Positions 54,001 to 60,000 of a stretch of 64,000 nucleotides of DNA are shown one piece after another; position 1 is the first letter of the stretch; each line of letters starts with the position of its first letter. Made by a program: the position numbers. Where the stretch lies: the NCBI RefSeq assembly GCF_013167455.1, contig NZ_CP038328.1. One strand, given 5' to 3'. This DNA comes from Escherichia coli O157:H7. GTDB taxonomy: Bacteria; Pseudomonadota; Gammaproteobacteria; Enterobacterales; Enterobacteriaceae.

Positions 54001-57000
54001 GACAACATTGATACGTCAACCCCCATGGGGCGCTTCTTTTTTCACATAATGGGTGCGCTGGCAGAAATGGAGCGTGAATTAATTGTCGAACGGACACGGG
54101 CTGGTCTTGCAGCTGCCCGTGAAAGGGGACGAACCGGCGGCAGACCCCGTCGTCTCACGCAGGAACAATACGAGCAGGTCGGGCGTTTACTGGCCGGGGG
54201 TGTCAGTCGAAGACAGGTGGCACTTATTTTTGATATCGGCCTTTCAACCCTTTATCGTTATTATCCTGCGAGCGTTTCGGAAAAATAAGACGCTCCCTTT
54301 GTTGGGCCTTTACTGAATTAACGCAAAATGGCGTTTATCGGTCTGTGGATATGATAATTCTGTTTATTCAGGAACAGGATGAATATTATGACGTCCAAAT
54401 GGGTTCAACTATCATCAATGCCCGGAAACTTTACCGTTAAAGTTTCCGGTGGTACAGCGGCATTTCTTGAGGCTCCCTTTCCTCCTGCTGAAACGAAAGG
54501 AGGAATGACATTTGCTGACTGTCTCATCAGTTTTAATACACAGGATTGCCTGTGGGTAAGGCCAGTATCCGGTGATCCGAACGTGGAAATTACCGGAGCG
54601 GGTATTGGTGCTGTCATTCCGTTAAGTGCTGATGTTGCCGGTACTACTGAACCGTCAGACTGGGATAATGCAGAAACACATACCCGTCCGGCAGGAAATG
54701 AAACGGCTTCCAGCTCCCCTTCCTGGTATTACGTGGTGGTTCTTGCTGGTCAGTCAAACGGTATGGCTTACGGTGAAGGTCTGCCACTGCCGGAGACATA
54801 TGACCGCCCCGAACCGCGTATTATGCAGTTAGCCCGTCGCAGTACAGTCACGCCGGGAGGTAAAGCCTGTCAGTATAACGACATCATTCTGGCCGACCAC
54901 TGTCTGCATGATGTGCAGGATATGAGTGGAAAAAATCACCCGAAAGCGGATGTGGCTAAAGGGCAATATGGCACCGTGGGTCAGGGGCTTCACATTGCCA
55001 AAAAACTGCTGCCGTTTATTCCGGCAGATGCGGGGATTCTGCTGGTTCCCTGCTGCCGTGGTGGTTCTGCATTCACGGCGGGTGCTGACGGCACGTACAG
55101 TGACAGCACGGGTGCTTCAGAGGACTCAGCCCGCTGGGGTGTGGATAAGCCGCTGTATAAGGACTTAATCAGCCGGACAAAAGCGGCACTGGCGAAGAAC
55201 CCGAAAAACCGCCTGCTTGCTGTGGTGTGGATGCAGGGCGAGTTTGATATTGATGCGAAGCCGACGGAGCATTCTGCGCTGTTTCTGGCGATGGTGGAAA
55301 AATTCCGCGCAGACCTGGCTGAACAGGCGGAACAGTGTACCGGTGGCAGTGCTGCTGGCGTTCCGTGGATTTGTGGTGATACCACGTATTTCTGGAAACA
55401 GAAAAACGAACAGGCATACCAGGCAATCTATGACGGCTACAAAAATAAAACAGATAAAAACATTCATTTCGTCCCATTAATGACAGATGAAAATGGCGCG
55501 AATGTACCCACCAACAATCCGGCAGAAGACCCGGATATTGAATCCATTGGTTATTACGGCTCAACGTGGCGTAACAGTGCCGCCACCTGGACATCTACGG
55601 ACCGGGCCAGCCATTTCAGTTCATGGGCACGTCGTGGGATTATTTCCGACCGTCTGGCCACGGCAGTTCTGACTCATGCGGGGCGAACCACAGTAAAAGC
55701 CGATGTTCCATCTTCTGAAACTGAAGCACCAGTGCCGTCACCTTCAGAAACTGAAGCAGTAACCACAACACTGCTGTCTTACCGTGTCAGTGAGTCAGAA
55801 GGAAATCTGAAAGCCCAGGGCTGGGAGCCGGCTGGCGGTAAAGCTGAAATTATCAGTGATGCAGGAGGCACAGGTGGTAAGGCAATGAAACTGACCAAGG
55901 AAACAGGTAAATCATCCTGGTATCTGGATCATGATGCCGGTACTGGTGCTGAACTGCTGAAAAATGGTGGTTTAATCAGTTGTCGTTTTAAAGTACCGGG
56001 CGACCTGGTGGCAAACCAGTATGTCATGGCGCTTTACTGGCCGGTTTCCTCTCTGCCGCAGGGTGTCACCCTGACAGGGGATGCAGGGAATAATCTGCTG
56101 GCATCGTTCTACATCCAGACAGACGCAAAAGACCTGAATGTGATGTACCACAATGCAAAAGTGGCAACAAATAACCAGAAACTGGGAACCTTTGGTGCAT
56201 TTGATAATGAATGGCATACGCTGGCCTTCCGTTTTGCAGGAAATAACAGCCTTCAGGTTATTCCGGTTATTGATGGTCAGGATGGTGCCGCGTTTACCCT
56301 GACGCAGTCACCAGTAGGAACTTTCCCGGTGGACAAACTCCGCGTAACGGATATCACAAAAAATGCAACTTACCCGGTGCTGATTGACAGCATTGTGGTG
56401 GAAGTGAAAAAAGCGGTAACAGAATAAAAAAATCCCGCCGGTCATGATATGGCTGGCGGGAGCTACCTAACCCATAAAGGAAAATAAAAATACTCCCGAA
56501 GGAGTGGTTATCAGTCGCTTCGATGTTTTTACCCGATAACGAATTATGTAGTCAATATCAAAGGTAAGGTTATATGACATTCGTTCATACAATGCTGCTT
56601 TATTTCTGCGCAGTGGTCAGTGCGTTATATCTGGTGAGCGGCGGTTATAAGGTCATCAGAAATTATATTCGCCGTAAAATTGATGATGCGGCAGCTGAAA
56701 AACTCAGTAAAACAGCACAGGCACCGTCATCCCCAAACGACCCGACCCCGCTCTGATAACGGGGCAATATACCTGCAAAAGGAGAATATTCATGCCAGAG
56801 ATTAAAGGCACGGTTACTGAAGAGCTTGTCAAACAGGCACTTTATTCTGAAGAAGTGAACCGCGTGCTGAAGGCGCAGGTTCGCAAGGATTTTGAGGCAC
56901 AAATCGACGCATATGTTGATGAAGTGCTGGCCCGAATGGTTGGCCATTCTCCGGCTGAAAACAGCACGGAGAATGAGCCTCAAGCCGTAGAGCAACCAGA

Positions 57001-60000
57001 GCCGGTTCAGCCCGGAACTGACGGTACTATGATGTAACAATACCGACCGGCAGGTTTCCCTGCCGGGTGAATTTGTTAATGCACGTTTTGTGTACTTTCC
57101 CTCCGGGGAGAACAGGCAGGACATATCAGCATCCTGAAACAGGACGCATTTTGGGGTTTGTATGTCTTGCCATTTTGAGATCGAGAACGGCGATAGATGA
57201 GCTGTAAGGGAGTCTTACAGGCAGGGCAAACAGGCTCTTTATCCATGTAAAGATCTCCTTTTTATGCATCTCTGCTTTACAGGAGACCGGGGAATATCAT
57301 AGGATACGACACGAGCTCGAAGTAAAGCATTGATGCGAATTTGTTCCAGGTCCAGATAGCTGTAACTATCTGGACCTCCCTTTATGTAGTATCCTGTTGA
57401 TTTGAAACATACTACATATACGCGCGATCCTACCTTCACTGTATAAAAAGTCAATAAAATGATCATTTTATGATCGTTTTCACCACCTAAGTCTTCGTTT
57501 TCTTTAAGTAAATAATCACCGCCCTGAATCATTGTTGATGACTTTTCAATCTATTTGTTGTATCAATTAAACAAATCGAATCGATCGTTTTTGTCGATCG
57601 ATTGCATGAGAAAGGCATCAACAACAAAGCAGGAGGTTATGCGGCCATGTATCGAAACATACGGTGCCGACACTGCAATAAGCTACTGGCACGGGCCAGT
57701 TTCAGTTATCTGGAAGTAAAATGTCCGCGCTGTAAAACCCTCAATCAAATCACATCTCCGAGCGCCACAGAGCACCCCACATACACAAGGAAATCCTGTC
57801 GTGGGGAACAGAAAGCAAGTCACATCCCGTATCATCAGCACGCCTGAACTTCGGAACGACCTGAAAAAAGCCTGTTCATTGCGGATTCCTGTCCTGGGTT
57901 TAGTGCTGTTCGATCAGTTCATCCAGCTTTTTCTGGCTCGTTTGCAGCGTGCCAGGGAGATCGGCTTTACCTACGGTGACGTTATGCACCATGGAGCTCA
58001 CCACCCCAGACCCCGTCACATCGCCCATGCGGGTAAATTTTTTATCCCCTACTGCGCCAAAGACCTGAATATTCGGCAGTTCACCGATTAACTGATTTGG
58101 CAGTTCACCCAGCGCCTTAATAACGTCGTTGTCTTTCCAGGTGGAAGTAGTGACAACCGCTTTGTTCACCGGCAGCGCCGCGCCTGGCGACATCATCACC
58201 CAGTCGGCAATGTTGTCTGCCTGCTCCATAAAGGTGACAAATTTTTCAGCCGCTTCCGTTTCTTCAGTCTTTTGTCCGGCGGTAATGGTCAGCGAGGTCA
58301 ACATGCCGTAGACGGCAGAGTTTTTCTCGGTTGGCACCACGAAACCGACGTTTTTCGGATCGCCTTCTTTAATCACAGCCGGAAGGATATAGGTGGAGTA
58401 AATCGCCATCGGCGCGGTGCCGTTCATAAAGGCGTCTTTCACTTCCATGATGTCGTTAGAACCCGGCATGGTGTTGGCAGCAAGGTCGCGGTAATAGGTC
58501 AGCGCCTGCATCATCTCTGGTGAATCAAGGGTGATTTTGCCTTCGGCGTTAAAGACGTTGGCCTAGTTGGATAACGCAAACTGGGAGAAGGATTGTTCCG
58601 TCAGCACGCTTTCTGCCGTAGGCAGCGCAATACCGTATTTTTTATTCGCCGGGTCATTCAGTTTCTGTGCAACGTCCAGCAGCTGTTGCCAGTTTTTCGG
58701 CTCCTCCAGCCCCGCTTTTGCCAGCACATCTTTGCGATACCAGATGCCGCCAATCCAGGCGCTGACAGGAACACCGGTCCATGCGCTACCATCTTCGGTA
58801 CGCACAATACGCAGTACGCCATCGTAAAACGCGCCTTCACCAACGTTGCTGATGACCGTGGCAACCGCCTTGCGATCGATAAGCTGCTCTTTGTCCATAA
58901 CTTTGGCGTAGTCATGACTGGTTTCAATCACTTCCGGCAGCGAGCCGCTACGTGAAAGAGTGATGACTTTGGTGTTATAAGCGTCCTCTTCGACGGGCAC
59001 TTGTTTAACGGTGATACCTGGGTTTTCTTTTTCAAAACGGGCAATCAATTTGCTGATAACTGCCTGACGCTCCTGCTCCACCGAAGAATGCATAAATTCG
59101 ATGGATACATGGGGTTTATTTTCTTCTTTACAGCCTGAAATCAGGGCGCAGGAAACCAGTGCTGATAACAGCACGATTTTTGATTTAATCATGAGATGTT
59201 CCTTTTTATTTAATCCACATAACCTGCCAGGGGCGCAGCGTTATTTTATTACCCAATATATCAACTTCACTAATCAGATCCCGACCGTGCAGGCCAGTAA
59301 TATTTACATGCTGAATATTTTTACTGACATTAAACAATCCGGTCAGACAATTACCCTCTGCGTTACTTCTTTGAATACGCATTACGGATGAATTAACCGT
59401 ATCGATGGTAAAATTATTATCCGGATGAAACTCGTTATGGCTGCGACGAAGTGTAATTAAACGCGACAACTCATGATATACCGCATGCCTTAATGTAGCT
59501 TCATCGTTCAGTTCTCGGGTTATCTCTTCACTGTGATATTTTTTACGGTTAATCGCACGGTTATATCCGAGTTTTTCGACACCTGCGTAATCATTACGCG
59601 AGCCCAGAATACTTTGAATATATATCGCTGGCACACCGGGGAAACTTAACAAAATCGCATGGGCAAGGATAAACCTGGCGCAACGTTCTTCATCGCTACT
59701 CTCGCGGCGGCTTAACGCATCCATATAGGTGACATTTATTTCATAGGGACTGCGCGTACCGTCGGGATTATTTTTCCAGTTTACTAATGCACCTTCCTGC
59801 TGTAATGCCTCGACCAGCGCTAATATTTCGCTTTCTGGTAACAAGCCCCGCAGTGGGTTCAGCCCGATGCCATCGTGAGAGGCGAGGAAGTTAAACCAGG
59901 TCGTTTTACCGGAGGGCAAGCTCAGACTTTGCGCCCACTGGCACAGCGCCTCGACGTTCTGTTTTTGCACCGCATGTAACACCAGCGGCGGCAGCGAGAA

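Follow-up and report, generated by a model that had tools for sequence, protein, structure and literature searches.

The small DUF1378 and DUF826 genes of a Mu-like prophage in Escherichia coli O157:H7 are the 3' part of a NanS-p-type esterase cassette with a predicted convergent small RNA gene

A stretch of 64,000 nucleotides from Escherichia coli O157:H7 (NCBI RefSeq assembly GCF_013167455.1, contig NZ_CP038328.1), hereafter the window, contains a Mu-like prophage with two small neighbouring genes, whose products belong to the Pfam families DUF1378 and DUF826. A preliminary description had regarded these genes as a separate small transcription unit between two terminator hairpins and had suggested a superinfection-exclusion or toxin-antitoxin-like module. 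In this study, we show that the pair is the fixed 3' part of a cargo cassette consisting of five pieces, a NanS-p-type sialate O-acetylesterase gene, a leftward small RNA (sRNA) gene, the DUF1378 gene, the DUF826 gene and an intrinsic terminator. The sRNA gene is predicted from conserved sequence blocks, and it is to this gene that the upstream hairpin belongs. For the function of the pair we tentatively favour an accessory role linked to the esterase. The pieces of the cassette are located in the window as follows.

54379..56427, plus strand: NanS-p-type sialate O-acetylesterase gene, 682 amino acids, Pfam SASA and DUF6645, phrog_143; first gene of the cassette
56426..56556, minus strand: predicted leftward sRNA gene, promoter and transcript of about 94 nt from 56519 to 56426
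56434..56460, minus strand: terminator stem-loop of the leftward sRNA, the upstream terminator of the preliminary description; on the plus strand, A7 on its 5' side and no T-run on its 3' side
56574..56756, plus strand: DUF1378 gene, 60 amino acids, Pfam PF07125, phrog_494; Shine-Dalgarno sequence at 56565-56569
56792..57037, plus strand: DUF826 gene, 81 amino acids, Pfam PF05696, phrog_311; Shine-Dalgarno sequence AAGGAG at 56779-56784
57047..57077, no strand assigned: intrinsic terminator closing the cassette, hairpin at 57047-57066 with stem CCGGCAGG/CCTGCCGG and loop TTTC, followed by GTGAATTTGTT

The composition of the cassette was deduced from two samples of loci, one collected by way of DUF1378 and one by way of the esterase C-terminus, each comprising the best 80 of more than 200 hits. 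In all 80 viral-contig loci found via DUF1378 the DUF826 gene starts about 50 nt after DUF1378, in the same order, and the esterase lies about 150 nt ahead of DUF1378 wherever the upstream flank is present. Seventeen of these loci are Mu-like and continue with com; the other 63 are lambdoid and continue with an S21-type holin and a signal-arrest-release (SAR) endolysin. The reverse test started from 78 loci found via the esterase C-terminus, 72 of which extend for 700 nt or more on the downstream side; all 72 contain both small genes. Even the distant DUF826 relatives P0154 and P0163 keep the cassette order. The surroundings of the cassette differ between the two phage types. Lambdoid Stx phages have the order stx, nanS-p, DUF1378, DUF826, holin S, R, with the cassette between Q/stx and holin S, whereas in Sp18-type Mu-like prophages including the one in the window it is found between the invertase and com/mom and not upstream of holin S. 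The esterase of the window shares 73-74% identity with NanS-p of VT2-Sakai over about 612 amino acids and 54% with the esterase of strain E2348/69. The N-terminal domain DUF1737, present on the VT2-Sakai and E2348/69 esterases, has no match in the window esterase; in its place stand the first approximately 110 residues (54379-54710, plus strand), for which Pfam gave no match.

Hairpins do exist on both sides of the pair, as the preliminary description had it, and the downstream one (57047-57066) is a genuine rightward terminator, but the upstream one terminates transcription in the other direction. On the plus strand the hairpin at 56434-56460 is preceded by A7 and followed by AGCTACCTA without a T-run; it is therefore not a rightward terminator. 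On the minus strand a promoter is located about 60 nt upstream of the terminator hairpin (-35 box TTGACT at 56555-56550, spacer of 18 nt, -10 box TAAAAA at 56531-56526). The transcript is predicted to fold into a 5' UUCG hairpin (56505-56492), a U-rich linker, the terminator stem (56460-56453/56441-34) and U7 (56432-56426). An unbiased alignment of the spacer between esterase and DUF1378 from 12 lineages revealed four conserved blocks (A-run, stem, TTTTTA box and GTCAA box), which on the minus strand read as TTGAC(A/T), 17-18 nt, TAAAAA or TAGAAA, a body of about 50-70 nt, a CCGCCAG/CTGGCGG hairpin and T6-8. The GTCAA box, which defined the segments compared, is kept in 157 of 160 loci (53 sequence variants), and the boxes, hairpin and T-run are conserved across these 157 loci; the -10 box, which was not selected for, is kept in 21 of 21 representatives. 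Two of the eight stem pairs of the terminator show compensatory changes. A covariance model of the sRNA (R1), built from 17 variants, scores 57 bits at the corresponding site of VT2-Sakai and 48 bits at that of PhiR5_2, and Rfam contained no match in the intergenic region between esterase and DUF1378. Altogether, 56426-56556 on the minus strand is predicted to be a conserved sRNA gene that points in the direction opposite to the small genes.

Two weaker matches of the covariance model were observed elsewhere. One (31 bits, E 7.5e-4) is located upstream of a lone DUF826 gene in L169, which belongs to another lambdoid group; here (4825-5240) the DUF826 relative directly follows Rz/Rz1 and is preceded by an A-run and a hairpin, with no good -35 box. 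The other (19 bits, E 0.18) falls in L173 at 455-528 on the plus strand, in the 3' part of PasD2 upstream of the E2348/69 esterase, and hints that the terminators of the sRNAs flanking that esterase are related.

Comparable sRNAs of prophages have been described experimentally. PasA and PasC of enteropathogenic E. coli E2348/69 are Hfq-dependent sRNAs, validated by northern blot; their minus-strand genes lie in the gap that separates the esterase from the gene after it, or overlap these genes (Pearl Mizrahi et al., PMC8550237, table S6). The E2348/69 sequence has an A-run and hairpin at the esterase stop and a TTGACA box, as found in the window. The Sakai sRNA EcOnc52, on the minus strand at 1181998-1182075, overlaps the stop of the esterase ECs1088. 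The sRNA of the window is like PasA, PasC and EcOnc52 in being encoded on the minus strand, convergent with the esterase, with a terminator that abuts or overlaps the esterase stop codon. For PasA and PasC the likeness is one of place, orientation and architecture and no sequence homology is claimed; the covariance model did not detect either of them at E<=1. A further sRNA, EcOnc37, is listed in prophage Sp18 at 5077340-5077410 on the minus strand (Tree et al., PMC4104026). It overlaps the stop of the Sp18 esterase ECs4993 in the manner of EcOnc52 only under an assumed shift of +128 nt between genome versions. This shift is the difference between the current record of 5,498,578 bp and the 5,498,450 bp presumed for the first version, and it is assumed to apply at this position. 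Given this assumed shift, EcOnc37 is by its place and orientation probably the counterpart of the window sRNA in Sp18. AsxR/AgvB was also considered for the window sRNA and was ruled out, AsxR being located between stx2B and nanS-p.

The reassignment of the upstream hairpin bears on the transcription of the pair. A consensus scan found no rightward sigma-70-like promoter between 56460 and the ATG of DUF1378 at 56574, and the conserved boxes between the hairpin and this ATG face left. Since there is neither a rightward promoter nor a rightward T-run after the hairpin, esterase, DUF1378 and DUF826 are most likely carried by one rightward mRNA that ends after DUF826; the separate transcription unit of the preliminary description thus gives way to the fixed tail of an esterase cassette. 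The terminator at 57047 consists of an 8-bp stem followed by GTGAATTTGTT, with clearer T-runs at the same place in relatives. In all lineages DUF826 is directly followed by a hairpin and T-run, which in the lambdoid phages separate it from holin S. The terminator of the window was missing from the output of the consensus scan because its T-run is interrupted. It also faces a convergent pseudogene on the minus strand. According to this arrangement the pair would be translated from the mRNA that reads through from the esterase and stops at the terminator after DUF826. Such a read-through mRNA would be fully complementary to the convergent sRNA, and antisense pairing or transcriptional interference could uncouple the output of esterase from that of the small proteins. 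In lambdoid lysogens the terminator after DUF826 would keep transcription that is independent of Q from entering the lysis genes.

The first of the two proteins matches DUF1378 with 131.5 bits (cut-off 25), residues 1-59 covering profile positions 1-59. It contains one hydrophobic segment at residues ~3-25 (Kyte-Doolittle maximum over 19 residues 2.0), in agreement with the single transmembrane segment assigned before, which is followed by a basic stretch, KVIRNYIRRK, and a proline-rich end; the isoelectric point is 9.3. An AlphaFold model consists of a single helix, residues 2-47, and a proline-rich tail. The protein is predicted to be an inner-membrane microprotein with a single pass, N-terminus out and C-terminus in, its tail being placed in the cytoplasm because of the positive-inside rule. 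The conserved residues of the membrane helix are M1, T2, F3, L9, Y10, F11 and L18-Y-L-x-S-G-G-Y25, the motif LYLxSGGY being invariant; the strongly conserved membrane face is accompanied by a basic juxtamembrane helix. Such conservation is unusual for a membrane helix and suggests specific helix packing instead of a mere anchor.

The second protein matches DUF826 with 57.1 bits (cut-off 25) over residues 1-54, and its tail is specific to the lineage. As described before it is acidic, with an isoelectric point of 4.4, a net charge of about -9 and an especially acidic tail. AlphaFold, supplied with an alignment of 23 sequences, gave a short helix (10-17) and a long helix (20-50) with a predicted local distance difference test (pLDDT) score of ~80-94 in the core. 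The tail is modelled as disordered and is acidic and proline-rich, the last residues being Met-Met. On this model DUF826 is a cytoplasmic acidic helical protein, and its long helix probably forms a coiled coil, as suggested by the hydrophobic stripe along it. The Shine-Dalgarno sequence AAGGAG, 7 nt before the ATG, is strong; that of DUF1378, TAAGG, ends 4 nt before the ATG and is moderate, with a spacing at the short end of the usual range.

When 1.84 billion representatives were searched exhaustively with a DUF826 profile, only 51 matches were obtained, all of them small phage proteins with the exception of P0137 (4219 amino acids). Residues ~1580-3730 of P0137 comprise 12 near-identical repeats, each scoring 4-6 bits against the DUF826 core and overlapping Pfam Phage_fiber_rpt. 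DUF826 proteins have no match to Phage_fiber_rpt even at E 10, and P0137 was dropped as a relative; the resemblance is probably a chance similarity of amphipathic helices. Some copies of DUF826 (L033, L056; P0064, P0065) have frameshifted tails. Most tails consist of an acidic proline-rich stretch and then hydrophobic MM, ML or LP. In some loci (L027, L045, L168) the last residues of DUF1378 and DUF826 match each other (QPLP/QPLP, QTLP/TILP, DLMT/DLMQQ), which may reflect a common recognition or degradation motif, or chance in low-complexity tails. Two annotations of DUF826 genes call for correction. 'orf43' of VT2-Sakai (L003, 4547-4966) starts in the wrong frame within DUF1378 and conceals the true DUF826 open reading frame (ORF) at 4721-4966, and the label 'head completion protein' on DUF826 in PhiR phages (PhiR5_2; L002, 5001-5291) is unsupported.

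By their Pfam matches and their pattern of substitution both ORFs are real genes under purifying selection, at the coordinates at which they were first reported. Between diverged copies the ratio of non-synonymous to synonymous substitution rates (dN/dS) of both genes is 0.12-0.30, with synonymous sites saturated. Between the two Mu-like lineages it amounts to 0.15-0.30 for DUF1378 and 0.12-0.14 for the DUF826 core, and values among lambdoid lineages are similar. The low values between the Mu-like lineages argue that both genes are translated and useful even without an adjacent holin. Equivalent Shine-Dalgarno sequences precede both genes in every related lineage, and reading frames, lengths and start codons are likewise intact in both phage backbones.

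Homology searches and structure prediction, proposed in the preliminary description as a check, identified the two Pfam families but led to no family with an assigned function and to no significant fold match. The PHROG matches of both proteins are to families of 'unknown function' only. No match to either protein was found in NCBIfam or in PADLOC (even at E 0.1), and comparison with PDB sequence profiles produced no hit below E 0.5. A Foldseek search of PDB and BFVD with the DUF826 model returned nothing significant. Pfam contained no match to a toxin, antitoxin, DNA-binding or holin domain, and PHROGs none to a holin or antiholin family. Complex formation was addressed with AlphaFold on a paired alignment, the two proteins being fused as DUF1378-linker-DUF826 by a Gly-Ser linker. 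This method is a weak test, and it gave no support for a complex.

The strong functional evidence comes down to one observation, namely the linkage of the pair to the esterase within a shared, terminator-closed unit in two unrelated phage backbones. Our explanation as a whole, embracing the identity of the cassette, its expression, the nature of the products and the accessory role linked to the esterase, is in our judgement a good possibility, somewhat short of probable; the esterase-linked role taken by itself is tentative, and a function of some other kind is rather unlikely. On this proposal the pair is an optional extra of the esterase cassette, and its two proteins would be produced whenever the esterase is, be it in the lysogen or late in infection. 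Their site of action would be the inner membrane, on its cytoplasmic side, and they would be tied to the use or handling of an esterase that has no signal peptide, in place of a role in lysis or as a toxin-antitoxin system. A specific and very doubtful version of this proposal is that DUF1378 and DUF826 form an inner-membrane module that lets the signal-peptide-less NanS-p reach periplasmic or extracellular O-acetylated sialic acids without lysis, or controls access by tethering. Such a module would explain why the pair has followed the esterase into a non-lambdoid, and even defective, prophage.

Several points weigh against our explanation. The two samples of loci are biased to close relatives. 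Prophages PP2 and PP5 of E2348/69 have an esterase of the same architecture (DUF1737-SASA-DUF6645) without the pair. In both, only an sRNA and a remnant of 8 codons lie between the esterase and the holin or an insertion sequence (IS) element; in PP2 the remnant stands behind a GGGAGG box and is followed by a terminator before the holin. It follows from these loci that neither the esterase nor the S21-type holin needs the pair. Since related esterases and holins occur without it, the pair is an optional add-on. The type of esterase C-domain was ruled out as a predictor of the presence of the pair, the pair-less E2348/69 esterases sharing DUF1737-SASA-DUF6645. Moreover, the DUF826 relative P0147 stands alone after Rz/Rz1, with neither esterase nor DUF1378. 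Near-identical DUF826 proteins (93-100% to Sakai) are found beside esterases that are 60% or 91% identical to that of Sakai, and a K-type DUF1378 is paired with a Stx-type DUF826. Esterase and small genes recombine independently, and this independent recombination of the three genes argues against co-adapted protein contacts. In the fused model the predicted template modelling score (pTM) was 0.21, and the pLDDT of the DUF826 core was ~51-68 as compared to ~80-94 for DUF826 alone. Finally, a literature search found neither expression data nor functional data on either of the two proteins.

Next in rank comes superinfection exclusion, another anti-phage module or a toxin-antitoxin-like pair, expressed from the prophage, in which the membrane protein, alone or together with its soluble partner, would keep other phages from entering or abort their infection. 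The generic layout, a small inner-membrane protein next to a small soluble one, encoded among the cargo of two prophage types, would suit such a module, as would a cassette closed by its own terminator like morons expressed in the lysogen, and genes that have stayed intact in a prophage without its right end. The searches yielded no positive evidence for this earlier suggestion (no PADLOC, NCBIfam, PDB-sequence or fold match), and neither Pfam nor NCBIfam assigns a toxin, antitoxin or DNA-binding domain. Further, no promoter belonging to the pair was found, a complex of the two proteins is unsupported, and strict attachment to an esterase is unexpected for an autonomous defence gene. We consider this explanation distinctly unlikely. 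Quite improbable, and ranked after it, is a role as regulators of lysis timing, antiholin- or releasin-like, for phages with SAR endolysin and pinholin, with DUF1378 as the membrane component and DUF826 as the cytoplasmic one, a loose parallel to T4 RI/RIII. It draws on position: in 63 of 80 loci about 75 nt separate the end of DUF826 from the S21-type holin downstream, which is followed by the SAR endolysin, and a lone DUF826 relative directly follows Rz/Rz1. A SAR-like N-terminus is also found on the endolysin of the Mu-like phage. This endolysin gene (30489-30989, plus strand), however, lies about 26 kb from the pair in the window, and yet the Mu-like pair is under purifying selection. Moreover, in lambdoid phages a terminator separates DUF826 from S, the same type of holin does its work in E2348/69 PP2 in the absence of the pair, no locus of the samples had the pair beside a holin without the esterase, and neither protein matched a holin or antiholin family in Pfam or PHROGs. 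As a side observation, the SAR-like N-terminus of the Mu-like endolysin reads LIALVLAGAGTFTIA, and the same class of endolysin occurs in the lambdoid phages that carry the cassette.

The two genes might also have no function and be carried along with the esterase by chance recombination break-points. The pair is dispensable for related esterase cassettes, and the frameshifted DUF826 tails mentioned above (L033, L056; P0064, P0065) would fit such hitch-hiking. Against it stand dN/dS values of 0.12-0.30 across lineages that are saturated at synonymous sites, the intact frames, lengths, start codons and Shine-Dalgarno sequences in both backbones and the invariant motif of the membrane helix. The selection data disfavour hitch-hiking to the point that we regard it as barely credible, and the esterase-linked role keeps the first rank.

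The element that hosts the two small genes is a Mu-like prophage, with the cassette in its variable right end between a gin-type invertase and com, as expected from the earlier placement of the pair as cargo of the variable right arm. The order of genes is baseplate and tail-fibre genes, Gin-type invertase, the 682-amino-acid SASA and DUF6645 esterase, DUF1378, DUF826, a convergent gene, com and mom. The neighbours of the cassette are the following.

53728..54288, plus strand: Gin/Pin-type DNA invertase, adjoining the cassette on its left within the Mu-like backbone
57076..57532, minus strand: convergent gene, homologue of ECs4996 (phrog_26524), split by a frameshift into 57076-57246 and 57239-57532; context, outside the cassette
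57647..57851, plus strand: com (Mu Com zinc ribbon, Pfam Zn_ribbon_Com) and the first ~50 nt of mom, placed by BLASTN end points and the Sakai annotation

The homologue of Sakai ECs4996 in the window is a frameshift pseudogene with ORFs of 56 and 97 amino acids, convergent with DUF826; phrog_26524 is listed as of unknown function. The similarity to intact Mu-like prophages ends at 57851/57852, about 50 nt inside mom, and host DNA directly follows, with the 3' end of a gene for a sugar-binding protein at 57900. The prophage thus lacks mom and the right end, and with this loss it is probably immobile. It sits in a permease gene of a sugar ABC transporter and splits a sugar-utilisation cluster into 13072-19757 and 57900-60510 (minus strand). 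This cluster, presumably ycjM-ycjT, contains a GH65 phosphorylase, two ABC permeases, a substrate-binding protein and a sucrose-phosphorylase-like enzyme. The MalF-like permease is reduced to a fragment of 211 amino acids and the binding-protein gene is in two parts (57900-58514, 58563-59192).

The 671-nt query region is 100% identical in four other genomes from E. coli that produce Shiga toxin (STEC) and was found in 211 out of 5426 complete genomes of E. coli. Prophage Sp18 of O157:H7 Sakai shares 98.6% identity with the window over 5.4 kb, and its counterparts ECs4993 (esterase), ECs4994 (DUF1378) and ECs4995 (DUF826) have the same order. Sp18 agrees with the window from the invertase through the esterase, DUF1378, DUF826 and the convergent gene to com and mom; the prophage of the window differs in being without mom and the right end and in the gene of insertion, which for Sp18 is sorM. 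The same cassette layout recurs, at varied chromosomal sites, in another Mu-like lineage that is about 70% identical.

Both genes are already catalogued and annotated as members of families of unknown function. Their 100% identical copies are named 'DUF1378 family protein' (WP_000144787.1) and 'DUF826 domain-containing protein' (WP_001114103.1) in RefSeq, and the literature notes only DUF826/DUF1378 ORFs between nanS-p and S (PMC10462455). The lambdoid pairs of 933W, VT2-Sakai and PhiR5_2 belong to the same families and share with the window the order after a NanS-p-type esterase, the leftward sRNA element and the terminator after DUF826, at an amino-acid identity to the window copies of ~52% for DUF1378 and 35-50% for DUF826. 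In contrast to the window copies, they lie in a late operon dependent on Q, next to the lysis genes and with an esterase carrying DUF1737. Morons are defined as extra genes flanked by their own signals (Juhala and Hendrix definition, cited in Tree et al. 2014, PMC4104026). The cassette resembles them as a block of cargo at insertion hot spots of two phage types, with its own terminator and kept in lysogens. The pair differs from them in that no promoter of its own was found, the unit being the whole esterase cassette. The T4 RI/RIII antiholins and the 'releasin' gp25 of phage Mu are built around a small membrane-anchored protein, which in T4 has a small cytoplasmic helical partner, and belong to phages in which the release of endolysin has to be timed. 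No similarity of sequence or fold between these proteins and the pair was found, and the pair differs from them in the predicted cytoplasmic tail of DUF1378 and, in the window, in the distance from the lysis genes.

What is useful in this study is the anatomy of the cassette and the recognition of the upstream hairpin as part of a predicted convergent sRNA gene. The finding as it stands is an ordinary one, of low to modest interest. It corrects annotations, in that 'orf43' of VT2-Sakai and the 'head completion protein' of PhiR phages are DUF826 and the upstream 'terminator' is that of the predicted sRNA gene. The pair adjoins the Shiga toxin genes in hundreds of STEC prophages. Wherever it was seen to travel, Mu-like prophages included, it did so as the tail of the NanS-p esterase cassette, with a predicted convergent Hfq-type sRNA gene between it and the esterase. 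If the pair does govern the release of the esterase, this would bear on the use of gut mucin by STEC.

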